Positions 3,710-29,278 are shown, counted from the stretch's first letter. The stretch: 32,000 nt of DNA from an uncultured Opitutales bacterium (GCA_934660865.1 CAKUIA010000007.1:60001-92000); one strand, 5' to 3'. The notes: generated by a model not told the origin, from the sequence alone. Program-made: numbers and translations.

Positions 3710-4552
3710 ATGAAAATAATAAATACCCCTTCGGAAATGAAAGATTACGGCGCAAAGGTACGCGCCGACAAAAAAACTCTGGCACTTGTGCCGACAATGG
3801 GCGCGCTGCACGCAGGGCACTTAAGCCTGATTAAAAAGGCAAAGGAATGCGCCGACATTTGCGTTGTTTCGATATTTGTAAACCCCACGCAATTCGGCCC
3901 GAACGAAGATTTCGAAAAATACCCCCGCCAGGCCGAAAAGGATATTTTGGCTGCCGAAAGCGCGGGGGCCGACGCCGTATTTTTGCCGAAAACCTCCGAC
4001 ATGTATTTTGCCGACTCTTCCACTTTTGTAGAGGAGGAATCGATTTCGAAAGACCTTTGCGGGAAGTCGCGCCCGAAACACTTTAGGGGGGTAACAACCG
4101 TAGTGTGCAAGCTCTTTAACATAGTTAAGCCCGATTTTGCGGTATTCGGCGAAAAAGACGCCCAGCAGGTTTCCGTTATAAAGCGCATGGTGCGCGACCT
4201 GTTTATGGACGTAAAAATAGTAAGGGCGCCCCTCTTTAGAGACGAAAACGGTTTGGCAATGAGCTCGCGCAACGCCTATATGGACTCCGTTCAAAAGAAG
4301 GAGGCCCTAATGCTTAACAAGTCGCTTTTAAAGGGCAAAGAGCTTGTAGAAAAAGGCTGCACAAACGTAGACAGGGTTATTGCCGAAATAACCAACTGTT
4401 TGTCGAAAAGCTCCAAGATAAGGGTAATTTACGTCAAGGCGGTAGACGCCGAAACGTCGGTGCCCGTAGCCGAGATAGAAAGCGGCAAAACCAGAATTTG
4501 CATGGCGGTTTGGCTCGACAACACGCGCCTAATCGACAATATGGTAATGTAA
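3710..4552 (+). CDS. panC: Pantoate--beta-alanine ligase (pantothenate synthetase)
   Basis: 280 aa. LVPTMGALHAGHLSLIKKA contains the HxGH motif, and the length is typical. Confidence 0.9.
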   Translation: MKIINTPSEMKDYGAKVRADKKTLALVPTMGALHAGHLSLIKKAKECADICVVSIFVNPTQFGPNEDFEKYPRQAEKDILAAESAGADAVFLPKTSDMYFADSSTFVEEESISKDLCGKSRPKHFRGVTTVVCKLFNIVKPDFAVFGEKDAQQVSVIKRMVRDLFMDVKIVRAPLFRDENGLAMSSRNAYMDSVQKKEALMLNKSLLKGKELVEKGCTNVDRVIAEITNCLSKSSKIRVIYVKAVDAETSVPVAEIESGKTRICMAVWLDNTRLIDNMVM

Positions 4553-6729: not shown

Positions 6730-7119
6730 ATGCAATTCGAAGCTTATTTACCTGTATTTTTACAAATAGTCCTGTCGGTGGCGATGGGGCTTGGAATTAT
6801 TGCGGCAAGCTGCATATTCGGACAAAGGGCCAAAAAGAACGCCATAAACAATTCGCCCTACGAATGCGGTATGCCCACTTTCGGCAAAGCGCACATGAAT
6901 ATGGGCGTTAAATTCTATGTTGTTGCCCTGCTTTTTGTGGTGTTCGACATAGAGGTGCTTTTTATGATTCCCTTTGCCCTTATCTACTCCGACTTTGTAG
7001 CCGCAAACATTTCAATCATTGCGGTTGTAATGTTCTTTTTGGCCCTTATGATAGCGGGCATAATATACGAAGTAAAAAAGAACGCTCTAGACTGGAATAT
7101 CCCCAAAACAAATCTCTGA
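6730..7119 (+). CDS. nuoA: NADH-quinone oxidoreductase subunit A (ND3 family), not followed by nuoB
   Basis: 129 aa with three hydrophobic segments. Motifs are PYECGMP, FYVVALLFVVFDIEVLF and ALDW. Confidence 0.8.
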   Translation: MQFEAYLPVFLQIVLSVAMGLGIIAASCIFGQRAKKNAINNSPYECGMPTFGKAHMNMGVKFYVVALLFVVFDIEVLFMIPFALIYSDFVAANISIIAVVMFFLALMIAGIIYEVKKNALDWNIPKTNL

Positions 7120-7132
7120 TAGCTAAATTGAT

Positions 7133-8500
7133 ATGGATTTAAGCAAGTATATCGCAAAATCGAGAATAATAGAAATTAAAAGCGCCGACTTTGAGGGCGC
7201 TATAAAGGAAATGCTCGATGCCGTGCCAAGCGAGTTTTTAAAACCGCAAAGCACAAAAGAAGGTATACTTAAAGACGTTGTAGCCCGCGAAAAGAATATG
7301 CCCACCTACCTGGGCGGCGGCGTGCTTATGCCGCACGCAAAGGCGCAAATAAAATCCAGCTATGTGTTTGTTGTCGGTATGTGTCCCAACGGAATCAGTT
7401 TCGACACAAACCGCAACGAATATTCGGAAACAAGGCTTATATTTTTGCTTTTGGCAAACGGCGTGCTTAAAAACTACCTTAACACGCTTTCTACAATAGC
7501 AAAGCTTTTCGCCCAGCCCGACGTACACGCCGAAATTTTCGGCAAGACCGACTTTGCGGGCTTTAAGGAAAGCATTTGGAAAATCTTCGGCAAAAAGGGC
7601 AAGTCCGACAACAAATCGGGTTCGGGCGTCGCCAAAATGAGCAGGGTTGCAAAACGCTTTCTTTCGCAGGCAATGCGCATTGCAAAAACCTCGAAATCTA
7701 CCTGCGTTATGCTTTTCGGCGACACATTCCCATCGGGGGTAGACACCGGCGAAATTTTCGGAGGCCTAAAAACCCTTATAGTTACCGAACGCTCGGCGGA
7801 AGACTTCCCCGGCAAAAAGACCGCGACTATTTCGGTTAAGTCGTATTCGGGGCGCAGAATGACGGGCTTTGGCAGCGCCATAATTATGGGGCTTACAAAG
7901 GGGCTTATAGACCGCAACGAAAAGATATGCTGCATTGGCGGCATAAAAGACAGCAAGATTTTCGACACCGTTGTGGTTGTAGACATTGCGCAGGAATTTT
8001 CGAAAATAATGAACCTGCAAAGCAATCTTGTGCCGGCGGGCGTAAAACCCGAAGTTGTAGAAAGGGTTTTGATTATAGCGTCGGATTTGTCGGTTGAAGG
8101 CAGGGAGGGCAAACCCGTCGGCTGCCTTTTTGTTGTAGGCGACGCGAAAAAAATACGCCCATTTACAAAGCAGCTTATACTAAACCCCTTTTACGGCTAC
8201 AAGCCCGAAGAGCGCAACATTTTAAGCCCATTTATGGACGAAACGGTAAAGGAGCTTTCGCTGATAGACGGAGCCGTGATTATAGACGGCTCGGGCGCGA
8301 TAGAAAGCGCGGGAACATTGATACATACGCCCGACTTTAACCTAAAGCTGCCGGGCGGGCTTGGGGCAAGACACGCCGCAGCCTACTCGGTTTCCGTTTC
8401 GGCCGACTGCCTGGCCTTTGTAGTTTCGTCGAGCACGGGCATAATAAGCGTGTTCCGCAACGGACAAATGCTGCCTTTGAACGAGAAAAACCATTCTTAG
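7133..8500 (+). CDS. Three-domain signalling protein: PTS EIIA type-2 (PtsN-like), pyruvate-kinase-C-terminal-like domain, and DAC (diadenylate cyclase, DisA_N-type) domain
   Basis: - aa 1-150: REKNMPTYLGGGVLMPHAK, the EIIA-2 phospho-His loop, with His68 at nt 7334-7336.
- aa ~172-300: alpha/beta region STCVMLFGD...LIVTERSAE...ICCIGGIKDSKIFDTVVVVDI, which resembles PK_C.
- aa ~305-450: GCLFVVGD...IDGAVIIDGSGAIESAG...LGARHAAAYSVSVSADCLAFVVSSSTGIISVFRNGQ, which aligns to the CdaA/DisA DAC core (DGA and RHR motifs). Confidence 0.7.
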   Translation: MDLSKYIAKSRIIEIKSADFEGAIKEMLDAVPSEFLKPQSTKEGILKDVVAREKNMPTYLGGGVLMPHAKAQIKSSYVFVVGMCPNGISFDTNRNEYSETRLIFLLLANGVLKNYLNTLSTIAKLFAQPDVHAEIFGKTDFAGFKESIWKIFGKKGKSDNKSGSGVAKMSRVAKRFLSQAMRIAKTSKSTCVMLFGDTFPSGVDTGEIFGGLKTLIVTERSAEDFPGKKTATISVKSYSGRRMTGFGSAIIMGLTKGLIDRNEKICCIGGIKDSKIFDTVVVVDIAQEFSKIMNLQSNLVPAGVKPEVVERVLIIASDLSVEGREGKPVGCLFVVGDAKKIRPFTKQLILNPFYGYKPEERNILSPFMDETVKELSLIDGAVIIDGSGAIESAGTLIHTPDFNLKLPGGLGARHAAAYSVSVSADCLAFVVSSSTGIISVFRNGQMLPLNEKNHS

Positions 8501-9997: not shown

Positions 9998-10013
9998 TAT
10001 TCCGATATACTAA

Positions 10014-10256
10014 ATGGGAAAATTCGAAAAGTTAATAGAAAAGCTTGGCAATTTAAAATCTGACAACGCTTGGACTTTTGAAGACGCCGTCTATCTGCTG
10101 GAAAACTCGAATTTTGAAAAGGTCGGCGGCAAAGGAAGCCATCAAGCGTACCAGTGCGAAGCTTTGCAAAAGACAGTGGTTTTGGCAAAACACGGCAATA
10201 AGATAAAATCGGGATATATAAGAAGCATAAGAAAGGCACTCGACAATGAAAAATGA
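10014..10256 (+). CDS. hicA: HicA-family mRNA interferase toxin
   Basis: 80 aa. GGKGSHQAYQCEALQKTVVLAKHGNKIKSGYIRSIRKAL fits the HicA/YcfA GSH...H core. It overlaps the downstream gene by 11 nt. Confidence 0.75.
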   Translation: MGKFEKLIEKLGNLKSDNAWTFEDAVYLLENSNFEKVGGKGSHQAYQCEALQKTVVLAKHGNKIKSGYIRSIRKALDNEK

Positions 10257-10611
10257 GAATTACGCATTAAGAATTTCCTGGGACGAAAACGAGAATGAAT
10301 ACCTCGCGGAAATACCCGCATTGGAGGGTTGCATTGCCTACGGCAAAACCGAGGAAAAAGCGCTAAAAGAACTGCAAATCGCAAAAGAGCTATGGCTTAA
10401 AGCAAGAAAGTCCGCAAAACTTCCCATTCCCAAGCCCGAAGCAACCGTGGAAAAACTTAGATCATTAAAGCCCATTTTGAATGTTTCCAAAGTTGCGCGA
10501 TACGCAAATATTCCCGAACAAACATTGCTTTCAAAAATCAAGCGCGGCTCGCCCCTGAATGCGAGCGAAAGCAGAAAAATAGGCAAACTTCTGGAAACTA
10601 TAGCCGTATAA
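10246..10611 (+). CDS. hicB: HicB-family antitoxin with a C-terminal DNA-binding-like region
   Basis: 121 aa. YALRISWDENENEYLAEIPALEGCIAYGKTEEKALKELQIAKELWL is a typical HicB N-domain. The C-terminal LNVSKVARYANIPEQTLLSKIKRG is HTH-like. Confidence 0.75.
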   Translation: MKNENYALRISWDENENEYLAEIPALEGCIAYGKTEEKALKELQIAKELWLKARKSAKLPIPKPEATVEKLRSLKPILNVSKVARYANIPEQTLLSKIKRGSPLNASESRKIGKLLETIAV

Positions 10612-10676
10612 CCGTTTTTTTGCCGTTTTAAATACAAGTATAACCCGGCAAAGCTGGTAAATTAACGGAATGTAGC

Positions 10677-11834
10677 CTACAAAAACCTCAGCACCCATTC
10701 GGCGGCGCAGGTGTTGTTTTCGGCAAACAACTGGCGGCGCAGCTGTCGGGCGTTTTCAAACGCGCCGTTTTTGCAATCTGGGTCTTTTAGGCATTTTGTC
10801 AAATAGGCCGCAAGTTTTTTTGGCGAGGCTTGCCCCTGCAAAAATTCGGGCCATGCGGGTTTGTCTAGCACAATGTTGGCAAGGCTTAGGTATTTTACGT
10901 TAACAAGCATTCTGCCTATTATATATGTAAGCGGGTTTGCCACATACACTATCGCCCCGGGTATTCCCGCCAGGCACACCAAAAGCGACATTGTGCCCGA
11001 ACTCATCAAAACCGCGCTCGCCTTAAGCGGGGCTTTGTCGGCCTTTTTAAGCTGTATATTTACATCGCCAAACTTCTGCAAAATTTTGTCGAGCTGCGCC
11101 TTGATTTTTTCGTCGGGGTAAAGGGTTGTAAATTTGGCGTCTTTGCCCATAAGGCGCGCCGCCTTTAGCATTACGGGGTATATCTTTGCTATTGCCGATT
11201 TGCGGCTGCCCGGCAAAAGCAGAATTTCGGAATCGGCGCTGTACGAAATATTAAAGCGGCTTTCGCCCGAAACAAAGGGGTGGCCCACATACTGCACGTC
11301 AAGCGAAGTATCTTCGTAGCATTTCGGCTCGAACGGGAATATAACGCCCAATGAGTCCAGGCAATCGGCCATGACAAACCTGCGTTTTGCCTTCCACGCC
11401 CAAATTTGCGGGCTTATGTAATATAAAAGCCTAACTTGGCCGCCGCCTTTAACAGAAATTTTGCGTTTTTTAAGCTCTTTTGCCAACGCCAAATTAAAGC
11501 CGGGGTAGTCTACAAAACAAACGGCTTTTGGCCTATATTCGGCTATCCACGAAAGCACTTTTTCGAAAAGCCTTTTGAAAAACGAATAGTTTTTTAAAAC
11601 CTCTACAAGGCCCACAACCGAATGCTCGGTTAAGTCGAACAGAAACTGCGAGGGACACTCGTTGCGCAATGCCGCCCCGCCTATTGCGCAAACCTTTTTA
11701 TCGGGGCTTAACGCGCATAGCTGCGCAACCAGCTTTGCCGCATGCTCGTCGCCGGAATGCTCGCCAGCAATAACAAGCAAATCGCACTCGCCCCATTTTG
11801 GGGCGGGCAGCGAAATATCCAAAGCCTTTGCCAT
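10677..11834 (-). CDS. lpxB: Lipid-A-disaccharide synthase
   Basis: 385 aa. N-terminal LLVIAGEHSGDEHAAKLV matches the GExSGD motif of LpxB. The length and GT-B-like layout fit. Confidence 0.85.
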   Translation of the reverse strand: MAKALDISLPAPKWGECDLLVIAGEHSGDEHAAKLVAQLCALSPDKKVCAIGGAALRNECPSQFLFDLTEHSVVGLVEVLKNYSFFKRLFEKVLSWIAEYRPKAVCFVDYPGFNLALAKELKKRKISVKGGGQVRLLYYISPQIWAWKAKRRFVMADCLDSLGVIFPFEPKCYEDTSLDVQYVGHPFVSGESRFNISYSADSEILLLPGSRKSAIAKIYPVMLKAARLMGKDAKFTTLYPDEKIKAQLDKILQKFGDVNIQLKKADKAPLKASAVLMSSGTMSLLVCLAGIPGAIVYVANPLTYIIGRMLVNVKYLSLANIVLDKPAWPEFLQGQASPKKLAAYLTKCLKDPDCKNGAFENARQLRRQLFAENNTCAAEWVLRFL

Positions 11835-11849
11835 ACGCGCAAAATCCCG

Positions 11850-12794
11850 CTAAAACTGCGATTCTATTTGACGCGAAATTTCAAGGGCAACCTCGAGTGC
11901 CCTGCGCCCCAATGCGGCGTCTACCTTCGGGTTTTTGTGCTCGATTACGCAGTTTGCAAAGCTTTGCAGTTCGCGCTTTAGGGGTTCCTGCTTGTCTATG
12001 GGAACTTCCATGCGGGTTATGTTCGAAAGGTTTTCAACCTTCATAAGGTGGCCCGTTTGGTTCATAAAGTCTAGCGACATGTAAGACCCAGGCTGGAATA
12101 TCCTGATTTCCCTAAGTTTTTTTGCGCTTGCGCGGCTGGTGTTTAGGTTTGCAATGCAGCCGTTTGCAAATTTAATGCGCGCGTTTGCAATGTCTTCGGT
12201 TTTGCTAAGCACGCGAACGCCTACTGCCTCTATGCTTTCTATGGGCGATTTTGCCAGCTGCAAAATAATGCCTATGTCGTGAATCATCAAATCCAAAACA
12301 ACGCCGACTTCGGTACCGCGCACGTTAAACGGGGCAAGCCTGTCGGCCGTAATGAACTTGGGCGACTTTACATGCGTTTCCATAAAAGTCATTACTGGGT
12401 TGAAATGCTCAACGTGCCCTACCTGTATAAGCAAATCCTTTTCCTTTGCCTTGGCAATCATCAGGCCCGCGTCTTCGCTTGAAGTGCAAAATGGTTTTTC
12501 GACCAGCAAGTGGCAGCCCAAATCCAAAAGCGGCAGCGCAATTTGCGTATGCAAGTCGGTGGGAACAACAACGCTTACGGCCTCGGCAAGCTCGGCAACC
12601 TCTTCAAGCGAGTTTGCAATTTTGCACGAATATTTGTCGGCAATCGCCTTTGCGCGTTCCGGGTTGGCGTCCATAATCGCAACAAGCTCGGTATTTTCAA
12701 GCTCGGAATAAATCCTTGCGTGGTTCTGCCCCATAGAGCCGCCGCCGATTACGGCGCATTTCAATTTTCTATTGCTTTCCATTGTAGACACCAT
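11850..12794 (-). CDS. Gfo/Idh/MocA-family NAD-dependent oxidoreductase, GnnA-like candidate (UDP-GlcNAc 3-dehydrogenase)
   Basis: 314 aa. Rossmann start KCAVIGGGSMGQNHARIY and the EKP motif (LLVEKPF). It ends 15 nt upstream of lpxB. The family call is solid; the GnnA assignment rests on context only. Confidence 0.6.
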   Translation of the reverse strand: MVSTMESNRKLKCAVIGGGSMGQNHARIYSELENTELVAIMDANPERAKAIADKYSCKIANSLEEVAELAEAVSVVVPTDLHTQIALPLLDLGCHLLVEKPFCTSSEDAGLMIAKAKEKDLLIQVGHVEHFNPVMTFMETHVKSPKFITADRLAPFNVRGTEVGVVLDLMIHDIGIILQLAKSPIESIEAVGVRVLSKTEDIANARIKFANGCIANLNTSRASAKKLREIRIFQPGSYMSLDFMNQTGHLMKVENLSNITRMEVPIDKQEPLKRELQSFANCVIEHKNPKVDAALGRRALEVALEISRQIESQF

Positions 12795-12828
12795 AATGCA
12801 GTTTTCGGCAAAATCTGCAAGATAGATT

Positions 12829-15591
12829 TTAAAGCTTGTCGGCGTCTATTTGCTCGAGAATTGTTCCGTCGCTGTTGAATATGTTTTGCGGCTTTATGCT
12901 TACCGAATATTTAGGGTCTGAAAACGTGTTTGAAACTTTTATTTGTATTGTGCCTATAAGCGGGTTAAACGCCGTAGACGCTATTTTGGAGATAAGAGGC
13001 AGCGTTTCGCCGCCCAGCCATTTAAAATACAGCTTTGCCGAAATTTCGTCGCTAAGGCAGTTGTATTTTGCCTTTCCGCTTATTGTAGACGAAGCGCCGT
13101 TTATTTCCAGTTTTTGGAACGACAACTCGCCGTTTTCCAAATCGGCAACGGTTTGCATATTGTCGTATTTAAATGTCGCAATGGGGAACCTCAGCTTTTC
13201 CAGCGCAACCGAAATGCCGCCCAAAATGTTCAGCTTGGCAAGGTTTTCGTTTTTCAATTCGGCGGTGGCGCGCCCCTTTATGCTTTTAAAGTCGTCCAAA
13301 TAGCCCTGCGCCGTTCCCCTTACGTTTACAAGCCCCTTTTCGGGTGGCTCGTCGTCTTTTTTTTCGGCATTCGCCAAAGCCGCAATAAAGTCTTCGGCGC
13401 GCTGCTGGTCTATGCCGTCTACGTCGAAAGCCGCGTTAAAATACCTGCGCTTGCCCTCTTTTTTAAGCGAAAATGCCCCCAAATTTATTTTGCCCGCGCA
13501 AAAAACGCCTCCTACGTTTTTTATGTCGAAATCCTCGTCTAAACCCGACCCAAAACCGCGTATGCTGTCGAACGGGAAGCCCCCTATGTCTATAAATTCG
13601 GGAATGTCGAATTTAAACGCAATTTTTTGCTTTGCGTCTTTTTCGCGCTCCAAGTTTGCGCAGCGCAAGTCCAAATCCACATTCGCATAGCCCGAAAAGC
13701 GCAACACGTCTTTTAGCTCTTCAACATCTTCGCCGCCCAGGGCAAACAGCGCGCCGCTTTTCATGTTGGCATTGGCAACAACCCTGCGCTCGTAATACTT
13801 GTCCAAGCCCCTGTTTGGGTCGTATGTCCAGCACAAGGCGGCTTTTGCAAAGCCCTTGTCGGTGTCCGAAATATCGACATCGTATATCGAAATAACAGAC
13901 GGGTCTACATTTATCTTAAGCGATACGCCGCCGAAAAGGTGGTTGTTGTATACGACGTCTTGCCCCTTTACCGACACAAAGCACCATATAAAATCGGGGT
14001 CGCCCCAGCGGCTTTTTATGTAGGCGTTTGCATACGGAAACCCTTTTTTAAATTCAAATTCGCCCATAATGCGGCGCCACCAGTCCTCCATAAAATGGCT
14101 TATTGCTGTGGGCCTTATAGTGCCGTCTATGTAGAATTCGTAGTCGAGATTTTTTAGGTTTTGGTAGACACTACCTTCCACCTGCCAGCCTTCGGGCGAG
14201 GCCACAAAAATATTGTCTGCATACAAAGCAAAGCTTTGCGAATCGAAACTTATGTCGGCGCACGCCTCGGTTGAGGGAATTTTATAGAACACGCAATCTT
14301 TGCCCGCAAACTTTGCCGACACAAAAAACTGCCTGTTTTCGATGTTAAAATCGGCACTGCCCGCCAAATACACCCCTTCGGGGAAGTCGAAATCGTTAAG
14401 TTCCTCTATTTTCGGCACAAAATTAAAGTTTGTTGCAAACAGCGGGTTTTCGAATGTGCAAAATTTGGCGCTAACATTCGAGCCGCTTCTGTTTGCAACA
14501 AGCTTGGCAAAAAAGTCGCCCCTTCTTTTTACGTATATATCCGCCATTGTGGGCATATGGTCGGCAAGCGAAAGCTTGTCGGCAAAAATGTCGGCATAGG
14601 CAAATTTTTGCCCGTCAAACAAAATGTCCACCGCCGAAACTTCGGCGTTAAACAGCGCCTTGTTTTCGAAATCAACCAAGGCAAAAGCGTCTAAATTCTT
14701 AAGCCGGCTTTTGCCGAAAATGTCGGCCTTGCCCGCTTCAAGCATAACCTTTGCCGTTTTCCTGCTTATGTTCGACTTCGACATTTCGGCCGCAACTACA
14801 ATGTTTTCGAAGGAAACGTCGCCCATATTTTCGACCGGAACGACAACCGAATTTGCGCCGTATACAAGCTTTAAAAAGTCAAGCCCCTCGCTTGTTGCGT
14901 CGAAATTTACAACCAGCGCCGAATTGCCGAACCTGTCGGCATACTCGCGGCCGCTCTCCAAAAATTTGCAGAAAGCGTTCCACATTTGCGGCGGAGTTTT
15001 TGCGGAATCTTTTTGCGCCGTTTCGTGCCCGCTCTTTTGCCGCTGCGCGAAAATCCTTTCGCTGAAAGTGCCCGAAGCCCTGATTGCAACCCTGCCAAAG
15101 TGCGCCCTAAGCTTTTCCAATTTCCACCAAATGCCGCTGTTCGAAAGCGCAAAGCTCGTCTTTTCCAGCAGCCAGCCCCTTTCGGAACCCTCGCTGGAAT
15201 TTACCTTGGCGTTTTCAACATAAATTTTGCTTACAAGAAAATCGCCCCTTAACAGCGCAAAAACGGAAATGTCTACTACCACCTTGTCGGCGTTTAAAAA
15301 TTCGGCCGAAGTGCCCGCAAACCTAAGCGACAAGCCTTTTATTTCAACTTGTCCCCTTGCATTAAGCCTTATGTCCTTTTCGGCGGCTACAACCCCGTTC
15401 TTCGACAAGTGCGAATGTAGCAGCTCTACAAACGATTCGTTTACCCCAAACGAAAGCGAATAGGCAAGCGCCACCAACAGCGCGCTTTCGGCCAGCAACG
15501 CCGCAAACAGGAAGACGTTGAACGCGTAAAGAGCCGTCCGCAAAGCCTTTTTTGCGGCTTTGCCTAAAGCGTTGTCGTTTGATACTTTCAC
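12829..15591 (-). CDS. AsmA/TamB-like large envelope protein (N-terminal membrane anchor plus a long beta-rich region)
   Basis: - One TM helix: LYAFNVFLFAALLAESALLVALAYSL.
- AsmA-like N-terminal pattern: VEIKGLSLRF...LNADKVVVDISVFALLRGDFLVSKIYVENAKVN.
- AsmA_2-like C-terminus: GELSFQKLEINGASSTISGKAKY...IGTIQIKVSNTFSDPKYS.
- There is no in-frame ATG in the first 231 codons. I chose the GTG at 15591, 1 nt after the DUF4340 stop. The alternative is the TTG at 15678. Confidence 0.5.
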   Translation of the reverse strand: MKVSNDNALGKAAKKALRTALYAFNVFLFAALLAESALLVALAYSLSFGVNESFVELLHSHLSKNGVVAAEKDIRLNARGQVEIKGLSLRFAGTSAEFLNADKVVVDISVFALLRGDFLVSKIYVENAKVNSSEGSERGWLLEKTSFALSNSGIWWKLEKLRAHFGRVAIRASGTFSERIFAQRQKSGHETAQKDSAKTPPQMWNAFCKFLESGREYADRFGNSALVVNFDATSEGLDFLKLVYGANSVVVPVENMGDVSFENIVVAAEMSKSNISRKTAKVMLEAGKADIFGKSRLKNLDAFALVDFENKALFNAEVSAVDILFDGQKFAYADIFADKLSLADHMPTMADIYVKRRGDFFAKLVANRSGSNVSAKFCTFENPLFATNFNFVPKIEELNDFDFPEGVYLAGSADFNIENRQFFVSAKFAGKDCVFYKIPSTEACADISFDSQSFALYADNIFVASPEGWQVEGSVYQNLKNLDYEFYIDGTIRPTAISHFMEDWWRRIMGEFEFKKGFPYANAYIKSRWGDPDFIWCFVSVKGQDVVYNNHLFGGVSLKINVDPSVISIYDVDISDTDKGFAKAALCWTYDPNRGLDKYYERRVVANANMKSGALFALGGEDVEELKDVLRFSGYANVDLDLRCANLEREKDAKQKIAFKFDIPEFIDIGGFPFDSIRGFGSGLDEDFDIKNVGGVFCAGKINLGAFSLKKEGKRRYFNAAFDVDGIDQQRAEDFIAALANAEKKDDEPPEKGLVNVRGTAQGYLDDFKSIKGRATAELKNENLAKLNILGGISVALEKLRFPIATFKYDNMQTVADLENGELSFQKLEINGASSTISGKAKYNCLSDEISAKLYFKWLGGETLPLISKIASTAFNPLIGTIQIKVSNTFSDPKYSVSIKPQNIFNSDGTILEQIDADKL

Positions 15592-15592
15592 C

Positions 15593-17443
15593 TTATTTTG
15601 CGTTTTGCGCCTGAGCTTGGGGCGAGTTTGCGCCAAGTTCGTACAACGCCGCCGACAACTTGGGAGCCAGCAACACAAGCTCGCCGTTTACAAGCGCATA
15701 TTGTTCGTTTGCCGAAATTCTCTCCCCGAAGGGAATCTGCAATGTCGAAATTTCGTCGGTTCCCGTACCGGGGGTTGAAATCTCTATGGAAAGCCTGTAA
15801 AGCCAGTCGCTTTTTTTGGAGTTTACCGTATACGACGTTTGGTCGGCAACGCCCTTTGCATAGGCCTTAACGTAGAACTTTTTTGCAAATTCCGCCAATG
15901 TTTTAAGTGCGTTTTTCTTAGGCAGCGAAAGGTTCTGCGCGCCGCCCAAAATTTCGCCGTTTTGTGCCGCGGCAAAAAATACCTGTTTTTCGCTCTTTAT
16001 ATCCGAAATGGAGATGGAAACAATTTTCGACTTTTCGGGCATCGAAAACGACAGCCTGCTTTTGTAGTCCAAAAAGTCGGGCTTAAAATTGCGTATAAGC
16101 TCGCCGCTAATCCCGTAAATGCTCGGAGAGGAATCTACCTTTGCATAGTACAATGTGGCGGCACCCTCTTTGTAGGATTTGCCTATGCTTATGCTTTTGC
16201 GCACGTTGTCGGCAAAGGCCAAAGTTATTTTTACAGCAGGATTGTCCAAGCCGAATTGCGCCAAATTTTCGTCGGGCAAATCGCTTACATACGAATATGC
16301 TATTGTGTTGCGCAAGGCCGACAATACGCGCGAAACCGTTGTTGTATCGGCGCTTGTAGGGGCGATTACCGTTTCGCCGCGCCTGCCCGAAACGTCCCAC
16401 GCGTCGCCCACTTTCTTAAGATTTACCATATCCGCGTCCGACGCGATTTCTATCTGCTGGCACGAATGTTCGGGAAATCTGAAAATGTTTTTTTCCCTCA
16501 GGGAATTTTGCAGGGCCGCAAGGTTTTCGAACGGGGCCAAATCAAGAGTAAATATCGTCGGGTTGTCGGCGATTTTGGCGTAGATTTTCCCCTTGGCGGA
16601 ATCGGCCTTGCCGAAATAGATTGTCTGCGAGCGGTTTGTTCCGTCGAGCGTCATGGAAATCGGCCACGACATTGCGTCCAGCCCGGCTTCAACCTCGCTT
16701 ACGTTTTCGAAGCTTTTTATCAGCGCCGACGAAACGGCGTTTATAAAGGCGTCTACCGCATGGCTCGAGGCCGCCGCCGAAATGGGGGTTTCGAAACGCC
16801 ATTTACCCTCGGCATTGCGGGTTAGCCCTATTCTTTTCCACGAAGTTTTCGCCCTTGTTTTTGCGTCTTCCACCGGAAGCCTTAAGGTTATCGAGGCAAT
16901 CTCGAATTTCGGAATGTCTATAACGCTTTGGCTGCGCAGGCGCTCTATGTCTACCATAAGCGCGTCGGCAAGCTCCCTGTCGGCAACAACAACCCTGTTT
17001 TGCATGGAGTCGAGCATATACACCTTGTCGCCGACCGACGCATTTTTGCCTATTTTAAGAGAATACATTGTTTTGCCGTCGCCGTATTTGAAAACGCAAA
17101 CGGGATTTTTCAGGCCGTAGTCGTCCAAACTCTGCCCGTGCGACGCTATTTCCGAAACGGGAAAGCCGTTTTCGCTGTCCAAAAACTCAAGGTTTCTTAA
17201 AATTCTGTTTACGGCAAAATAGTTTGCCTGCCACTGTATGGGCGAAATTATGCGCCATTTGTTGTTTTCGAACACCAAAATGCGGGGTTTGTCCACATTC
17301 TTGCCGTCTACCTGAAGCCTTGTAATTTCAACCAAAGCCCTTTGGCTTTGTTCGGGAACAGCCTGCGAAAATTCAAGTTTAAATATCGCAAGCAGCGCGG
17401 CGACATTGGCAATCAGAAGAAAAATCGTAAAACGTATCCGCAT
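15593..17443 (-). CDS. DUF4340-family protein (accessory protein of GldG-type ABC systems)
   Basis: 616 aa with an N-terminal TM helix (IFLLIANVAALLAIF). Contains NKWRIISPIQWQANYFAVNRILRNL and repeated YGLKNP / FGLDNPAVKITLAF motifs typical of DUF4340. It starts 6 nt after the GldG-like gene. Confidence 0.6.
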   Translation of the reverse strand: MRIRFTIFLLIANVAALLAIFKLEFSQAVPEQSQRALVEITRLQVDGKNVDKPRILVFENNKWRIISPIQWQANYFAVNRILRNLEFLDSENGFPVSEIASHGQSLDDYGLKNPVCVFKYGDGKTMYSLKIGKNASVGDKVYMLDSMQNRVVVADRELADALMVDIERLRSQSVIDIPKFEIASITLRLPVEDAKTRAKTSWKRIGLTRNAEGKWRFETPISAAASSHAVDAFINAVSSALIKSFENVSEVEAGLDAMSWPISMTLDGTNRSQTIYFGKADSAKGKIYAKIADNPTIFTLDLAPFENLAALQNSLREKNIFRFPEHSCQQIEIASDADMVNLKKVGDAWDVSGRRGETVIAPTSADTTTVSRVLSALRNTIAYSYVSDLPDENLAQFGLDNPAVKITLAFADNVRKSISIGKSYKEGAATLYYAKVDSSPSIYGISGELIRNFKPDFLDYKSRLSFSMPEKSKIVSISISDIKSEKQVFFAAAQNGEILGGAQNLSLPKKNALKTLAEFAKKFYVKAYAKGVADQTSYTVNSKKSDWLYRLSIEISTPGTGTDEISTLQIPFGERISANEQYALVNGELVLLAPKLSAALYELGANSPQAQAQNAK

Positions 17444-17449
17444 AAAAAA

Positions 17450-18931
17450 CTACCTCCTAAAGAAAGAAACCAAAAGACCGACTATTGCAATAAATGCAGG
17501 CAAAAGCGCAAATCTGAACGCAAGCGCAAACACGTCGCCCTCGCTTAGGGTAATGGAATACTTGCTCATCGAACGCGGCACAATGTTTAGCATACTGTCC
17601 CTTTCAAGCATCCAGTTTACGGTGTTGTATAAAAGCTTTGAATTGCCCAAACGGTTAAAAAGCCTGTTCGAGGCAAAGTCTTCGTCGCCGAATACCGCAA
17701 GCTTGCCGCCGGGTATCTTAAGCCCCAAGTCGTTGTTGCCCGTGCGCGAGGCCACCATTGCAACGGGAACGGGGCCTTTAAAATCCACGGCTTCGTCGTA
17801 CTTAAAGCCCGAGTTTTTGTAGTTTTTTTCGGCCCAGCTTGCGGGCGTGCTGTACATTAAAACGTCGCTTTTAATGCTTTCGTCTATGGCGGCGCCCAAA
17901 TCCTGCCTTACCATTCTAGTCGAGCCGAACTGGAGCGGCAAATCGGCGTCTACCAAATAGCGGACAATCTTGTGTGGGTTTTGCGAAAAGCTTTTTACGA
18001 CCAAGTCGCCCCCCGTGCTTTCGCCCGAGTTTGCGGATTCTATTACCATTGCGTCGTCGGTGCGAATGCCCCAGTCGAACAAAATTTCGTCCAACCCGTT
18101 TGTGTCGCCCATGCCGAAAAACATTATTATGTTGCCGTTCGATTTTAGCAGGTAGTTTTTAAGCAAATCTATTTCGCGCGGCAAAAAGGTGGCCTGCGGG
18201 GCGGCAATTACAATAAGGGCGGCGTTTTGGGGGATTTGTTTTGCCTCGGTAAGGTTTAAGTCGGCAATTTTAAAGTTGCGGCTTGTAAGGTACGACGCAA
18301 ATTCCGACATGCCCCGTAAAGGGTCTGCGCTGCGGTAGCTCATTTCGCCGTGGCCCGAAAGGAAATATATTTTGCCGTCGTCGTTTTGGGTTACCGAAAG
18401 CATTGCCGAGCTTATCGCCTGCTCGCCCTTCCACGAAACCTTGTTAGGGGCGTTTAGGTCGTACAAATCCGAAAGGCTTAAAATCTTGAATTTTTTTGCG
18501 GCGTTGTTCGAAACAATCACGCTGTTTTCTATGTCCTTGCCGAATTTCGAAACGATTTCCTCTACCTTTTTGCTTTCTATGTGCGGGTTTATGAAATGCG
18601 CCCTTATCTTAGCCGAATTTTTCATCGACAAATATTCGTATTGGGCAAGCGTTTTGTGCAGGTCTTTTAAAACCGAATCGCCGTCAAGGTCGCCAATGCC
18701 GCGCCTTACGGTAATATAGATGTCTATGGGCTCTTTTAGGCCGGTTATATAGGCCGTGCTTTCAAGCGAAAGCGAATTTTTACGGTTTTCGGAAAGGTCG
18801 AACTTAAAATAGTGCCTTGCCGCCAAAAAGTTTAGCGACAAGAACAGCAAAATGCCCAAAAAAATCTGAATTGTAAGGTTCAGCGTATTGGCCTTGCGCG
18901 CAAATCTAAAATCTCTAAAAGCCGCTCTCAT
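17450..18931 (-). CDS. GldG-like ABC-transporter auxiliary protein
   Basis: I moved the start to the ATG at 18931, which overlaps the permease stop as ATGA. It has N- and C-terminal TM helices and the motifs IYFLSGHGEMS and LIVIAAPQATFLPREIDLLKNYL. Confidence 0.7.
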   Translation of the reverse strand: MRAAFRDFRFARKANTLNLTIQIFLGILLFLSLNFLAARHYFKFDLSENRKNSLSLESTAYITGLKEPIDIYITVRRGIGDLDGDSVLKDLHKTLAQYEYLSMKNSAKIRAHFINPHIESKKVEEIVSKFGKDIENSVIVSNNAAKKFKILSLSDLYDLNAPNKVSWKGEQAISSAMLSVTQNDDGKIYFLSGHGEMSYRSADPLRGMSEFASYLTSRNFKIADLNLTEAKQIPQNAALIVIAAPQATFLPREIDLLKNYLLKSNGNIIMFFGMGDTNGLDEILFDWGIRTDDAMVIESANSGESTGGDLVVKSFSQNPHKIVRYLVDADLPLQFGSTRMVRQDLGAAIDESIKSDVLMYSTPASWAEKNYKNSGFKYDEAVDFKGPVPVAMVASRTGNNDLGLKIPGGKLAVFGDEDFASNRLFNRLGNSKLLYNTVNWMLERDSMLNIVPRSMSKYSITLSEGDVFALAFRFALLPAFIAIVGLLVSFFRR

Positions 18932-19692
18932 CTGCGTATGTCCATAACTATGGTTGTTATCGCCAAAAACAGGGCGCAAATGCTGGAATAGTAAAAGAAG
19001 GGCCTAGTGTCGAGCATTGCCGAGCCGAAATCCTCCAAATGCTTGAATGTTTGCATATAGTCGGCCAAAGCCCCAAACCACGCAAAGCTTCCGCTTTCGG
19101 GAACGTAGAACTTGTTTAAAAGCCCGCCTCCTATAAGCACGCAAAACAGCATGCAAAAACTCAGCATTGCGGCAACCAGCGTAGTGCGCGTCAAAGACGA
19201 GGCAAAAACGCCTATGGCAACATAGCTTAGCCCGCTTATGAAAATAAACAGATAGCCCGAAACCGTTTCGCCAAGCGAAAACACGCCGCCGTTTACCGCC
19301 GAATGCGGGACAAACCAAAGCGTTATAAGCGGAAACACCAGCGTTATCGCCCAAAGCAGAACATAGTATAGGTAGCACGCCGCAAATTTTGCCGCAACTA
19401 TCTGGAATATGCTGACGGGCGTTGTCATTAAGGCGTCTAGTACGCCCGATTTTTTTTCGTCGGCAAAGCTGCGCATTGTAAGAATGGGCACCAAAAACAA
19501 AACGGGAATCCAAAACACGGCCAAAAACTTTTCGGTTGCCGACACGGTAGAGGCCCTTTCGCTTAAATCCACCAAACTTAGCAGGTATATAAAGCCCATA
19601 AACGCCGTAAACAGCACGCCGGCAACGTATGTAGACGGACTTAGCATCATCATATACACCTGATTCGAAAACATTGTATAAAATTTTTTCAT
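18928..19692 (-). CDS. ABC-2 type permease (GldF-like)
   Basis: 254 aa, with about six hydrophobic segments. It lies directly between the ABC ATPase and the GldG-like gene. Confidence 0.7.
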   Translation of the reverse strand: MKKFYTMFSNQVYMMMLSPSTYVAGVLFTAFMGFIYLLSLVDLSERASTVSATEKFLAVFWIPVLFLVPILTMRSFADEKKSGVLDALMTTPVSIFQIVAAKFAACYLYYVLLWAITLVFPLITLWFVPHSAVNGGVFSLGETVSGYLFIFISGLSYVAIGVFASSLTRTTLVAAMLSFCMLFCVLIGGGLLNKFYVPESGSFAWFGALADYMQTFKHLEDFGSAMLDTRPFFYYSSICALFLAITTIVMDIRR

Positions 19693-19699
19693 GCGCTTT

Positions 19700-20704
19700 T
19701 TACGAGTCTTTGTTTTTTATATCCACAACGCTTTCCCAGCTGCGTTTTGTTGCCGCCATAAATATGTCTTCCAAAGTGGGCTTTTTGCGGTAAACCTCCC
19801 TAAGGCGCAAGGCCGTGTCTTTCGAAAGTTCGCAAACTATCTTTTCGCCCATATCCTCCAATATCGGCGTTTTTACGGTAAATTCCGAAAAACCTTCGCC
19901 GTCTTGCTTTGTTGCGGAATCCAAAACAAGCGAGGAGTCTATTATGCCGAGCAGACCGCGCATTTGTTCTTCGGTTGCCTTTGCCGATATTTTGTAGACG
20001 CTTTCGGTTATAAATTCGCGGCGCAATTCGTCGGGGCTGCCGTTGGCCACAATTTCGCCCTGGTTTATTATTATAACCCTGTCGCACATAAGCTCTATTT
20101 CGGGCAATATGTGGCTGCTTATAATAACGCTCATTTCGCCCCTAAGCGAATTTATAAGGCGGCGTATGGCCAAAATTTGGTGGGGGTCCAGCCCAATGGT
20201 GGGCTCGTCCATAATAATTACCTCGGGCTTTGCCAAAATGGCGTCGGCAATGCCAACCCTTTGCCTAAAGCCCTTCGAAAGATTGCCTATTATGCGCTTT
20301 GCCGCCTTTCTTTTAAGCTGGCAAATTTCCATAACCTCGTCTACGCGGGCCTTGTATTCGCGGCGGAGCAACCCCTTAATTTTAGCCCTGTAGCGCAGAT
20401 ATTCTATAACGCGCATATCTTCGGGCAGGGGGTTGTTTTCTAGCATAAAGCCTATGTGTTTTTGCGCCAAGTCGGGGTAGTTTGCAACGCTTTCGCCGCA
20501 AATGTATGCGCAGCCGCTTGTGGCGGGCATTAACCCGCTTATTATGCGCATTGTGGTGCTTTTGCCCGCCCCGTTTGGGCCCAAAAAACCGAGTATCTCG
20601 CCCTTTTTAATCGAGAACGAGACATCGTCTAAAGCTTTCAGTTCGCCGTATTTCTTTGTTAAGTGGCTTACGACGACCGAATAATTTTCGCCCGCTTCGG
20701 CCAT
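19700..20704 (-). CDS. ABC transporter ATP-binding protein (GldA-like) with a C-terminal extension
   Basis: Walker A GPNGAGKST, signature LSKGFRQR, Walker B VIIMDEPTIGLD, H-loop SSHIL. Confidence 0.85.
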   Translation of the reverse strand: MAEAGENYSVVVSHLTKKYGELKALDDVSFSIKKGEILGFLGPNGAGKSTTMRIISGLMPATSGCAYICGESVANYPDLAQKHIGFMLENNPLPEDMRVIEYLRYRAKIKGLLRREYKARVDEVMEICQLKRKAAKRIIGNLSKGFRQRVGIADAILAKPEVIIMDEPTIGLDPHQILAIRRLINSLRGEMSVIISSHILPEIELMCDRVIIINQGEIVANGSPDELRREFITESVYKISAKATEEQMRGLLGIIDSSLVLDSATKQDGEGFSEFTVKTPILEDMGEKIVCELSKDTALRLREVYRKKPTLEDIFMAATKRSWESVVDIKNKDS

Positions 20705-20716
20705 AGCGAATTTCGG

Positions 20717-21076
20717 CTATGCCACTTTCTTTGCTATATACGACTTAATGTCGCCCAAAGTGCGCAATGTGGCAATATCGTCGTTGTCTATCGAAGTGCC
20801 AATGGCTTCTTCTACGGCAAGCACAATTTCCACCATTGTAAGCGAATCGAAACCCAACTCGTCGGTAATTACCATATCGTCGGAGGGGTTTTTAAGAAGG
20901 GGTTTTTTGTCGTCTTCGGCAAATCTTTCGAGAATGCCCAAAACTATGGGGGTAATCAATGCAATATTGCCGGTTTTTCTGAAAGATACGGCCGCGTCTA
21001 TAGTCTCTTGCGAGCATTTTTTAAGGTTCTCTCTAAGAACCGCTTCGTCTTCTGCTGATAAGTTCATATTGTTCAT
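20717..21076 (-). CDS. Stand-alone acyl/peptidyl carrier protein with an N-terminal extension of about 40 aa
   Basis: 119 aa. The phosphopantetheine attachment motif LGFDSLTMVEIV places the Ser at residue 78. It ends 12 nt upstream of the ABC ATPase start. Confidence 0.65.
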   Translation of the reverse strand: MNNMNLSAEDEAVLRENLKKCSQETIDAAVSFRKTGNIALITPIVLGILERFAEDDKKPLLKNPSDDMVITDELGFDSLTMVEIVLAVEEAIGTSIDNDDIATLRTLGDIKSYIAKKVA

Positions 21077-21113
21077 AAAAGTAAGTATTAAAATTTTGCC
21101 GAGCTTTTCAATT

Positions 21114-23468
21114 CTATTTTTTATCGGAAAACTTGTCTACAATTTCGTTTTTTTCCACAACAAGGTTTTTAACCGTGCCCGCGTCGCAATATACGCCAAG
21201 TTTCGGCATATAGGGGCTTTTTGCGAACCGGTTGTTTACAACTGCAACATTCTCGCAGTGGGCAAAGTAGAACGAACCGCGGTAGTTGTGCGCAACAACC
21301 CTCGGGTTTTCGTTTATTATCTTGTTGTCCTTAAATATAAGGTTCTTTGTATTATTTGCGTATGCAATTAACCCGCAACTATTTATAAAAGTATTGTTTT
21401 CGAACAGCACATTGTTCAATATGGGGTAGCACTTCCTTACGGTAGAAGGATCTACCTCTAAATATACGCTAAGGGAAATGTCGCGGGCAAAGCCGTCGTT
21501 CTTGCCGCCTGCAGTTGCGTTGGCGTTTTCGAATGTGCAGTTTTTTACCACAATGTTCGAAGCTCCGTACCCTTCGCTCCAAACATTGAACGTATAGCCG
21601 CTTTCTATTTTCAGCGCCCCGCTTTCGTGGTGCTTAAAGCGGCAGTTGTCTACGGTAATGTCGCTTGCCAAAAGCAGAATTCCCCTTGCCCTGTTGTCGT
21701 GGAAATACGAATTGCGCAGTATTATGTTTTTAGAGCCGAAGCGGCGGTTGAACATAACAAAGCCGTCTTTTGTCTGCTTGGGCAGCTTTTCCTTGAATGT
21801 TATGTAGTGCTCGCCTTTAATCTTGTTGGGCATAACCTTTATCGCCGTTATCGTTCCCGTAAAGCCCGTGGGCGAATAGTCGGAATGGCGAAGCTCTATT
21901 TTGTCGCCAATGCCGTATTGGTTTACGGTCCTAAAATTTTTGGTTCTTAGCGTGTTTTCGTTAAGGGCAAAGGCGTATCCCGTGTTGTCGTGAACGTTAA
22001 GGCAGTCGTCGGCCCCGTACGAAAATTCGCAGTTTTCTATTTTTAAATAGCCGCACGAGCTTGCTATGTGGAAGTGGTCGGCAGCCGACGTTATATAGCG
22101 CTTGTTTACGCCCCTGCCAAACGGCGGCACAATTTTAACGTTGCGGACAATCCAGTGGTTTTGCGTGCCGCCCGCGCTCATCGCGTGGCCTGCGGTAGAA
22201 TATATGTTTACGTTTTCGAGCAGCATGTGCGAATTGCTTTGCATGGTAATGCCCGTCATGTGGTAGTAGTAGTGCTGCAGCCTAAAGAAATAGCCCTTTT
22301 GCAAAACGCCGAAGTTTGCCTTGCGGGTGTGCACTCTTAGCACATTGCCCGAAAGCCATTCGGTTTTTATGCTTTTGTCTTTGTAGTTGTTTATGCCAAA
22401 GCCCGAAGCGCCGTCTAGGCCCACCGTTTGGTTTTTAACGTCGTAGCGCGAAAGCATTGTAAGTTTAACGTCTTTGCGCGGGAATTTTTCGTATTCTACA
22501 AACTTTATGTCGAAATATTTTGAGGGCTCAATGCCCACAACTTCTACTAAGCTTGCAATGGGGTCTATGCTCCAATCCCAATCTATGTTGAAATTTTTAA
22601 ACTCTACCCTTTCGCAATTTTTTATGTCTATATCGTTGTGGTATTGCTTTTGGAATATAAAGGTGCTGTTGTTTGCGTCGAAAACAAAGTCCTTTAGACC
22701 GTCGAATATAACGGCCGCGTTCTCCCTAAAATAGTAGGTGCCCTTTTCCATTACAAGCTTGGCGGCCGAATTGCTTTTACAAAAGTCTATAAGCTCGTTT
22801 AGCTTGGCGGTAATGCTTTCGGGGGCGTTCGGCACAATGCCGTAGTCTTTTGCGTTTATAACCAAGCCGCCTTTGTTTGCGGGCTTTTTAATGTCGAACT
22901 CTTTTGCGCCCTTTGGCAGCACAAAGTTTGCCGATTTTGCGTCGCCAAAACTCTTTGTTATGTCTAAAAACTCTATATTGTCGCCCTCGTATACGGCAAG
23001 ATTTGCTATTTTGCCCGAAAGATTGCCGTGCGCCATAATGGTAAGCTGGTAGTCGTCGTTGTCGTTGGTGGCAACCGAGCAGCGAAACTCCCTAAAAGTC
23101 GGCGCATAGTGCCTGTTTTGCGAAGTCAAATTCCAATAGGGCATACCCGCAGCCTTGTCGGAACGCACAAAAATATGCAAAAACTGGTCAGGACTTAGGC
23201 TGTGCGAGTTGTCTATTAAAAAGTCGAATTTTATGGTATATTTGGTGTTCGGCTTTAAAACGCCCTTTTTGGTTATGAATATTGTCCTGTATTTGCCGTC
23301 GTTTTTGGCAACCGAAAAGTCAAGTCCGTCGTCGTCGTTTTCGGAAACGTACGAGCCGCCCCTTGTGCCTACCTGCCTGTCGAAGCCCTCAAAAACCGGT
23401 GTGTTTGCGGCCTGGGCTGCAAGGCAAAACAACATTGCAAATACAAACGGAATAAATTTTTTGAGCAT
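21114..23468 (-). CDS. Secreted right-handed beta-helix (pectin-lyase-fold) glycoside hydrolase-like protein with an N-terminal CBM-like beta-sandwich
   Basis: Signal peptide MLKKFIPFVFAMLFCLAAQAAN. Contains AKDYGIVPNAPESITAKLNELIDF, a pectate-lyase-3/GH28/GH110-type entry motif. Repeated NV/NC...F.N beta-helix coils follow (ILRNSYFHDNRARGILL, VDNCRFKH, VKNCTFEN, FENNTFIN, FKDNKIIN, VVNNRF). Confidence 0.55.
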   Translation of the reverse strand: MLKKFIPFVFAMLFCLAAQAANTPVFEGFDRQVGTRGGSYVSENDDDGLDFSVAKNDGKYRTIFITKKGVLKPNTKYTIKFDFLIDNSHSLSPDQFLHIFVRSDKAAGMPYWNLTSQNRHYAPTFREFRCSVATNDNDDYQLTIMAHGNLSGKIANLAVYEGDNIEFLDITKSFGDAKSANFVLPKGAKEFDIKKPANKGGLVINAKDYGIVPNAPESITAKLNELIDFCKSNSAAKLVMEKGTYYFRENAAVIFDGLKDFVFDANNSTFIFQKQYHNDIDIKNCERVEFKNFNIDWDWSIDPIASLVEVVGIEPSKYFDIKFVEYEKFPRKDVKLTMLSRYDVKNQTVGLDGASGFGINNYKDKSIKTEWLSGNVLRVHTRKANFGVLQKGYFFRLQHYYYHMTGITMQSNSHMLLENVNIYSTAGHAMSAGGTQNHWIVRNVKIVPPFGRGVNKRYITSAADHFHIASSCGYLKIENCEFSYGADDCLNVHDNTGYAFALNENTLRTKNFRTVNQYGIGDKIELRHSDYSPTGFTGTITAIKVMPNKIKGEHYITFKEKLPKQTKDGFVMFNRRFGSKNIILRNSYFHDNRARGILLLASDITVDNCRFKHHESGALKIESGYTFNVWSEGYGASNIVVKNCTFENANATAGGKNDGFARDISLSVYLEVDPSTVRKCYPILNNVLFENNTFINSCGLIAYANNTKNLIFKDNKIINENPRVVAHNYRGSFYFAHCENVAVVNNRFAKSPYMPKLGVYCDAGTVKNLVVEKNEIVDKFSDKK

Positions 23469-23489
23469 ATTTTTCGGGATATTTTATAA

Positions 23490-25571: not shown

Positions 25572-25580
25572 ATTGTTTGT

Positions 25581-28596: not shown

Positions 28597-28693
28597 ATAC
28601 ACTCGGGCATTATTTATACGGAATGCAAACTTGTAAAGAACTAAAAGACAAACTGTGCTTGAATATGCGGCGGCATTTGCCAATATATAAGGT

Positions 28694-29128: not shown

Positions 29129-29188
29129 TGCGGTGTGCGCTAGCGGCAAATACGGGGTTTTTGCAAACACAATTCGGCAATATTTTAA

Positions 29189-29217: not shown

Positions 29218-29278
29218 TTGAGGCCTTAATCACTACCATTTTGGTATAGCATTAACAAACAATTTTTCATTAAAAATT

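Follow-up and report, generated by a model that had tools for sequence, protein, structure and literature searches.

A conserved gene block joining a GldA/F/G-type ABC transporter and a DUF4340 protein to a divergent YhdP-like protein in Opitutales: a candidate envelope lipid transport module

We analyzed a stretch of 32,000 nucleotides (nt) from an uncultured Opitutales bacterium (GCA_934660865.1, CAKUIA010000007.1:60001-92000; hereafter the window, with positions counted from its first letter), focusing on a string of eight intact open reading frames (ORFs) that spans 10677-21076 on the minus strand, with lpxB at the 10677 side and an acyl carrier protein (ACP)-like gene at the 21076 side. 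Read in the direction of transcription, the string encodes an ACP-like carrier protein (20717-21076; PF00550), a GldA-like ATP-binding cassette (ABC) ATPase with a DrrA-type C-terminal domain (19700-20704; PF00005, PF13732), a GldF-like ABC-2 permease (18928-19692; PF12698, PF12730, PF12679), a GldG-like auxiliary protein (17450-18931; PF09822), a DUF4340 protein (15593-17443; PF14238), a divergent YhdP/AsmA-like protein of 920 amino acids (aa) assigned on family-level profile evidence (12829-15591; GTG start), a GnnA-like UDP-GlcNAc 3-dehydrogenase of the Gfo/Idh/MocA family (11850-12794; PF01408, PDB 7bvj), and LpxB, the lipid-A-disaccharide synthase (10677-11834; PF02684, TIGR00215). Recomputed from the sequence, the junctions measure 12 nt between ACP and ATPase, 7 nt between ATPase and permease, 6 nt between the GldG-like and DUF4340 genes (with AGGAGG upstream of the latter), 34 nt between the 920-aa protein and the oxidoreductase, and 15 nt between the oxidoreductase and lpxB, and the ATG of the GldG-like gene overlaps the permease stop codon (ATGA). 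The gene for the 920-aa protein follows that for DUF4340 by 1 nt if it starts at the GTG at 15591, or overlaps it by 86 nt if it starts at the TTG at 15678; we rejected the latter, given that gene callers chose the GTG in three public assemblies and that this start agrees with the family alignment. A preliminary description of the window, made from its sequence alone, had given exactly these junction lengths, and its eight gene calls are all borne out by Pfam, NCBIfam, PDB and family profile evidence.

The ATPase (PF00005, E 4.4e-28, plus PF13732) has no transmembrane (TM) segment according to its hydropathy, and the permease has 6-7. As a rule, ABC-2 type transporters whose ATPase is DrrA-like are exporters. 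The best NCBIfam matches of the ATPase, the permease and the GldG-like protein are the Gld models, with scores of 281.4 bits against TIGR03522 (GldA; cut-off 402.6), 88.7 bits against TIGR03518 (GldF; cut-off 288.5) and 54.3 bits against TIGR03521 (GldG; cut-off 389.85), so that by NCBI's criterion the three classify as Gld-family relatives and not as orthologues. The GldG-like protein (PF09822, E 1.8e-18) is predicted from hydropathy to carry TM helices at residues 19-37 and 470-488 around a periplasmic GIFT-type domain of ~430 aa, and its family profile matches the GIFT domain of IFT52 (5fms, E 3.9e-6). The DUF4340 protein matches PF14238 in three stretches (E 1.4e-46, 159.5 bits versus a cut-off of 25) and has one TM helix by hydropathy (residues 3-21), followed by ~590 predicted periplasmic residues for which no PDB relative was found. 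In a preprint on SAR11 relatives, a DUF4340 protein is predicted to lie in one complex with ABC subunits, encoded in a four-gene module of conserved neighbors, and transposon sequencing in Verrucomicrobium spinosum scored a DUF4340 domain as essential with a sliding-window method. A tblastn search against plasmids returned one unannotated GldG match and none for the AsmA-like protein, and two metagenome scans yielded no matches.

The three proteins with large periplasmic parts share a further feature, a conserved asparagine in the N-terminal TM helix. We observed that N34 of the GldG-like protein (position ~18830 of the window) is invariant, and that N13 of the DUF4340 protein (~17405) and N25 of the AsmA-like protein (~15517) are each at least 90% conserved, in homolog sets whose identity to the window protein extends down to ~31% (GldG), ~19% (DUF4340) and 24% (AsmA-like). 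In the DUF4340 helix, T6 and L9 are also invariant and N13 is nearly so. By analogy with the docking of LptC on LptFG, these residues suggest specific packing of each helix against a partner. Sequence conservation decreases from the cytoplasm toward the periplasm, with identities of ~64% for the ATPase, ~40%-48% for DUF4340, and ~27%-32% for the AsmA-like protein.

The 920-aa protein required family-level comparison. A word-indexed homology search returned only two near-identical relatives, and an exhaustive HMMER search recovered 461 representative clusters, nearly all of 860-1050 aa; the family is thus real and of considerable size. When a 65-member profile of this family was run against 5.8 billion sequences, proteins annotated as YhdP, DUF748, AsmA and TamB were found at E values between 3.5e-8 and 1e-5. 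The individual members tell the same story: Pfam YhdP (PF13116) is matched by 39 of 53 (best 2e-9), AsmA by nine and DUF748 by four, and among NCBIfam models GspN_Lepto is matched by 30 of 53 (best E 3.2e-10), the YhdP family by 11 and AsmA by six. The sole NCBIfam match of the window protein itself is GspN_Lepto, at E 0.0075; PDB sequences gave no meaningful match, whether the protein or the family profile served as the query. In hhalign comparisons, the C-terminal 300 residues aligned with the C terminus of a PF13116/PF05170 protein (96.7%), the N-terminal anchor and first strands with the N terminus of TamB (85.7%), and the extreme C terminus with that of Escherichia coli YhdP (66.7%, E 5e-5). 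Hydropathy peaks at residues 16-34, consistent with a single N-terminal TM anchor, and an AlphaFold2 (AF2) model built from the 65-sequence alignment (pLDDT 86.7, pTM 0.65) consists of a helix at residues 8-43, ~55 beta strands and a few short helices; the confident model is obtained only with the alignment, as single-sequence prediction gave a pLDDT of 32.6. On this evidence, we conclude that, within the AsmA-like superfamily, the protein probably falls in a divergent branch of YhdP type, a subfamily largely missed by current Pfam models.

The genes at the two ends of the string are of lipid-synthesis type. The ACP-like protein (116-123 aa across homologs) has its PF00550 match confined to the C-terminal half (residues 66-114, E 9.4e-9), preceded by an N-terminal extension of ~40 aa with a conserved stretch, FTxEDExxLRxxLKRCS; the serine motif LDS(L/I)TMVE is invariant in 32 homologs. 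Its best PDB matches are acyl carrier proteins. Since it falls below all AcpP equivalog cut-offs (best NF002147, 41.9 versus 84 bits; AcpP has ~78 aa), we take it to be a specialized carrier distinct from the housekeeping AcpP. The oxidoreductase (PF01408, E 1.8e-27) has NF040723, UDP-GlcNAc 3-dehydrogenase, as its best NCBIfam match (233 bits, with a cut-off of 450 in what is an archaeal model, the only one available). It aligns over residues 11-311 with residues 4-308 of PDB 7bvj_A (E 4.6e-53, ~40% identity, the next match being at 8e-14), a structure that a preprint names as GnnA; with this full-length match the GnnA-like label given in the preliminary description is well supported. No GnnB or DegT-type aminotransferase was found in the window. 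LpxB itself is clear (PF02684, E 5.4e-71; TIGR00215, 204.8 bits, above the cut-off of 190.25). Hydropathy gives no TM segment for the ACP-like protein, as for the ATPase, and no convincing one for GnnA or LpxB, and we assign all four to the cytoplasmic side, LpxB presumably as a peripheral enzyme.

We then compared the string across genomes. An ENA metagenome scaffold (L001) encodes proteins 100% identical to those of the window, and in two loci with a more distant DUF4340 protein (L004 and L005, 48% and 44% identical) the same eight genes occur in the same order between entirely different flanks. A genome scan with the AsmA-like alignment yielded 37 loci, all from Opitutales or Verrucomicrobiota and mostly from gut metagenome-assembled genomes; among them are Coraliomargarita sp. 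CAG:312, the isolate Intestinicryptomonas porci (L011; strain Cla-KB-P66, with the block in NZ_JALBUT010000002.1, 130445-153216) and Puniceicoccaceae Marseille-Q1082 (L020). Restriction of the synteny to this one genome, named in the preliminary description as the kind of result that would speak against a module, is not what these 37 Opitutales loci show. We mapped the eight window proteins onto the loci with phmmer and counted gene order in the 32 with enough flank: the order ACP, ATPase, permease, GldG-like, DUF4340, AsmA-like is kept in all of them. The last two genes are less constant. The gnnA-lpxB pair directly follows the AsmA-like gene in 27 Opitutales loci, and one (L033) has lpxB without gnnA. 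Neither gene follows the block in six (L015, L020, L025, L026, L027 and L042), in which unrelated genes come next (GH97, CbiM, an ABC exporter, a thiamine pyrophosphate (TPP) enzyme and others). In several loci, gnnA lies farther from the AsmA-like gene, at a distance of 160-430 nt. Judging from these counts, the recurrence of the string far exceeds chance.

Beyond these loci, we sampled seven distant contexts, six anchored on AsmA-like members (19%-27% identity) and one on DUF4340 (L006). The five-gene core running from the ATPase to the AsmA-like protein is present in six of the seven. A gene for a protein of ~920 aa lies immediately downstream from DUF4340 in all three loci anchored on DUF4340 (L004, L005 and L006; 921 aa in L006), and conversely DUF4340 lies immediately upstream of the AsmA-like gene in five of the six distant loci anchored on the latter (L044, L045, L046, L047 and L049), each with the GldG-like gene and a permease or ATPase gene also upstream. 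The DUF4340/AsmA-like junction is tight at all loci: the two genes overlap by at most 23 nt or lie at most 55 nt apart. None of ACP, gnnA and lpxB was found near the core in the distant contexts sampled. There, birA occurs at or near the upstream end of the block in L006 (5534-6535), L045 (3059-4069), L047 (404-1435, with coaX nearby) and L049 (4071-4916), and accB-accC-asp23 follows downstream in L006 (15074-16907) and L045 (12752-14623); the core is bracketed in distant lineages by biotin and fatty-acid-initiation genes. We also noted panC near the block both in the window (3710-4552) and in L044.

Taken together, the string is built in three layers: a five-gene core (ATPase, permease, GldG-like, DUF4340 and AsmA-like), an ACP gene specific to the clade, and a facultative gnnA-lpxB tail. 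The preliminary description had proposed all eight genes as one module. Its core part stands, being deeply conserved, but the ACP gene is confined to Opitutales and the gnnA-lpxB pair is missing in six Opitutales loci as well as in all distant contexts. Because these outer genes are not kept across divergence, the eight are unlikely to form one indivisible system, and ACP, gnnA and lpxB would be co-expressed accessory neighbors and not obligate parts.

What might the core do? We lean, if modestly, toward a reading in which the conserved unit is a five-protein inner-membrane machine, an ABC transporter coupled to an AsmA-like groove that moves lipidic cargo. A physical complex of the five proteins seems to us the best reading, because the genes are translationally coupled, their order is kept at great depth, and the topology and conserved TM asparagines of the products fit together; and the cargo is most likely lipidic, because AsmA-like proteins act as lipid grooves (PMC10345924, PMC11126948), the Lpt system offers a precedent, and lipid-synthesis genes recur as neighbors across lineages. 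In such a machine, the TM helices of the GldG-like, DUF4340 and AsmA-like proteins would dock on the permease, the transporter would spend ATP to pull a lipidic molecule out of the inner membrane, and the AsmA-like protein would receive the molecule in its hydrophobic groove and carry it across the periplasm, presumably outward to the outer membrane, following the same logic by which LptB2FGC feeds the Lpt bridge. In Opitutales, the block would then have gained the specialized carrier gene at its head and, in most members, the gnnA-lpxB pair at its tail, so that envelope-lipid synthesis and transport may be co-expressed. We regard an envelope lipid transport module of the ABC-plus-AsmA-like type as a live and attractive hypothesis. 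A further step is possible but more doubtful: with the GldG-like and DUF4340 proteins as adaptors, the dedicated transporter would load the YhdP-like groove protein and thereby energize and direct the bulk flow of lipid to the outer membrane of Verrucomicrobiota.

Several observations weigh against this interpretation. The AsmA-like call, made in the preliminary description for the protein itself, holds at the level of the family (profiles and hhalign) but not in the direct Pfam test, in which the 920-aa protein matches no family at E ≤ 0.01. It gave no hhalign match to E. coli YdbH either, and a Foldseek search of the PDB with the AF2 model produced low-TM matches only (the ApoB100 beta-belt and LptD, both beta-sheet proteins associated with lipid, at TM 0.1-0.17), with TamB absent from the top 50 matches listed. 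The block encodes no outer-membrane partner, that is, no TamA- or YnbE-like gene. GldG/DUF4340 transporters also occur elsewhere without an AsmA-like gene, as in the four-gene SAR11 module, and thus the transporter can probably work without a bridge. Conversely, one AsmA-like member (P0064, 907 aa; L048, 10001-12724) has no adjacent ABC, GldG or DUF4340 gene. At that locus, STAS and GAF-SpoIIE genes precede it and a flagellin gene follows on the opposite strand.

The same unlinked member and bridge-less modules could instead be explained if the AsmA-like and the ABC/GldG/DUF4340 genes were co-regulated envelope housekeeping genes whose products do not cooperate physically, their order simply reflecting operon inheritance within one phylum. 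All named loci come from Opitutales or Verrucomicrobiota, and the breadth we observe may indeed be that of one phylum. Speaking against it are an adjacency that persists down to ~20% identity of the AsmA-like protein while all flanking genes change, DUF4340 and AsmA-like start and stop codons that overlap or nearly abut, and the conserved asparagines of the TM anchors, and we consider this explanation unlikely.

Distinctly unlikely, in our view, is the scheme of the preliminary description, in which all eight genes constitute one self-contained pathway, with ACP, GnnA and LpxB building a glycolipid of the lipid A type and the ABC transporter and AsmA-like bridge exporting it. It draws on the tight coupling of all eight genes in the window, on their joint presence in 27 Opitutales loci with differing flanks, and on the fact that GnnA and LpxB are lipid A enzymes. 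Against this, the tail is absent after the AsmA-like gene in the six Opitutales loci and reduced to lpxB in L033, distant lineages lack both ACP and lpxB near the core, and the junction preceding gnnA opens to hundreds of nucleotides in places (the 160-430 nt mentioned above); since gnnA-lpxB is dispensable at the locus, a route specific to lipid A is improbable. Moreover, LpxB works at the cytoplasmic face, several steps ahead of a transport-ready lipid. Adjacent gnnA and lpxB are also a lipid A arrangement known in its own right, reportedly described by Sweet and colleagues in 2004.

Another possibility is that the module exports or exposes at the surface lipoproteins or other macromolecules, and not bulk lipid. 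The gliding-associated GldA/F/G transporter of Bacteroidota would be one precedent, the Gld models being the best NCBIfam matches of the three transporter proteins, and the frequent match of AsmA-like family members to the Leptospira-type GspN model (30 of 53, best E 3.2e-10) points in the same direction, given that GspN, according to a preprint, plays an AsmA-like part in the surface transport of lipoproteins, helping type II secretion (PMC12439988). Yet the three scores fall far short of the Gld equivalog cut-offs, neither the window nor the sampled loci contain type IX secretion system (T9SS), type II secretion system (T2SS) or gliding genes, and the neighbors that recur are genes of lipid synthesis and not of secretion, all of which makes this alternative quite improbable. 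Finally, a machine running in the retrograde direction, returning mislocalized lipid from the outer to the inner membrane, has a model in the established ABC-powered transport by Mla (reviewed in PMC10345924) and nothing in the sequence fixes the direction, but the ABC-2 type of the transporter, with its DrrA-like ATPase, argues for an exporter and a Pfam scan found no MlaA-like or MCE component, so that we deem it very unlikely.

If the five-protein machine is real, it bears on two related problems: how phospholipids pass to the outer membrane, which is a long-standing question, and how YhdP, TamB and YdbH are loaded and energized. The reviews and papers that we found describe no dedicated motor for AsmA-like bridges (PMC10345924, PMC12439988, PMC11126948). 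A YhdP-like family whose genes are tied this strictly to those of an ABC transporter would provide a concrete and testable candidate for such a motor, and one that lies outside Proteobacteria, in a gut-associated lineage with cultured members (I. porci and Marseille-Q1082). It would also offer a first functional handle on the GldG-type auxiliary proteins and DUF4340, two widespread uncharacterized components. Were the transporter to power bulk lipid flow, as in the more doubtful step above, the design would be a third one next to Lpt and to the YhdP/TamB/YdbH bridges, which are apparently unpowered, and GldG/DUF4340 transporters would gain a function.

The limits of the transcription unit deserve a separate comment. 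No strong terminator was found inside the eight-gene string among the terminator-like matches scanned, as the preliminary description had also reported; such matches are not enriched in the region 10000-29500 (48, versus 39.4 +/- 6.7 in shuffles). Overlooked previously, the tight same-strand run extends four genes upstream of ACP, all on the minus strand: a beta-helix protein (21114-23468, 37-nt gap to the ACP gene), a ThuA-like protein (23490-25571, 21-nt gap), a second Gfo/Idh/MocA protein (25581-26930, 9-nt gap) and a 635-aa ORF (26923-28830, overlapping by 8 nt). The unit thus cannot be delimited from spacing alone. The ThuA and beta-helix neighbors occur only in relatives whose 920-aa protein is ~85% identical, and since the beta-helix, ThuA and Gfo neighbors are not conserved, we rejected extending the unit to include them; it is comparative data, and not spacing, that set the upstream limit of the block. 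A candidate promoter region precedes the ACP-like gene (21077-21139, minus strand). Its position is consistent with this limit, but the evidence is weak, as it comprises consensus matches only, both sigma-70-like: TAGACA-17-TAGAAT at 21139-21111 (10/12) and TTGAAA-16-AATACT at 21111-21084. The 635-aa ORF matches no Pfam family; in L025, a homolog (516 bits) lies at another position and, with respect to the block, on the other strand. An Rfam scan of the whole window found no family at gathering score and no RNA element.

Other features of the window, all on the plus strand, are recorded here for completeness. Between lpxB and a convergent Mur-ligase gene lies a HicA toxin/HicB antitoxin pair (10014-10611), which looks like a recent strain-specific insertion, since it is missing at the same spot in L003, a locus with an 85% identical AsmA-like protein. 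An unusual 455-aa fusion of phosphotransferase system (PTS) EIIA-2, a DacZ_P sensor and a diadenylate cyclase (DAC) is encoded at 7133-8500 and kept in close relatives; a nuoA-like gene (NADH-quinone oxidoreductase chain 3; 6730-7119) stands alone between it and a phosphoribosyltransferase gene, with no other nuo genes adjoining. The thiamine gene pair thi4-thiE (29279-30717) has no TPP riboswitch upstream according to the Rfam scan. A 237-aa protein with multiple EF-hand pairs is encoded at 876-1589, and L004, a more distant relative, encodes a similar EF-hand protein immediately next to lpxB (16845-17513, minus strand).

How does the block compare with known systems? In the literature searched, we found no description of GldG or DUF4340 linked to AsmA-like proteins, and no paper describing the combination as a system, in agreement with the preliminary description. 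The 920-aa protein resembles YhdP, TamB and YdbH in its single N-terminal TM anchor, its long, almost all-beta periplasmic body and its YhdP-type C-terminal alignment, but it is shorter (920 versus ~1260 aa for YhdP/TamB), too divergent for any Pfam model, and has no TamA- or YnbE-like partner encoded nearby; it is also encoded at the end of an ABC transporter operon, a position with no reported parallel among the known members. With Lpt the likeness is one of functional logic only: an inner-membrane ABC transporter, bitopic accessories and a periplasm-spanning hydrophobic beta groove (PMC10345924). There is no sequence relation, Pfam finding no LptF/G, LptC/LptA or OstA-type domains in the eight proteins, the groove protein is of the AsmA type and not a beta-jellyroll, and no outer-membrane translocon is in the operon. 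The ATPase, permease and PF09822 auxiliary belong to the same families as GldA, GldF and GldG, the gliding-associated proteins of Bacteroidota, but the host belongs to Verrucomicrobiota, the window contains no gliding or T9SS genes, and the literature searched mentions no AsmA-like partner of Gld. The SAR11 module likewise has an ATPase, a permease, an auxiliary protein and DUF4340 as neighbors, but is described with four components, without the AsmA-like fifth gene. As in the gnnA-lpxB pair of GlcN3N-type lipid A, a GnnA-like oxidoreductase directly precedes lpxB, but no GnnB is found in the window and the pair is joined to a transporter operon. The carrier recalls AcpXL in being dedicated, distinct from AcpP, conserved in its phosphopantetheine serine and close to lipid A genes; it differs in its N-terminal extension of ~40 aa, in the lack of fabZ/fabF/lpxXL-type partners, and in being tied more strictly to the transporter genes than to lpxB. 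Each component is thus of a known kind, and what appears to be new is the genetic coupling of an AsmA-type bridge to an ABC motor.

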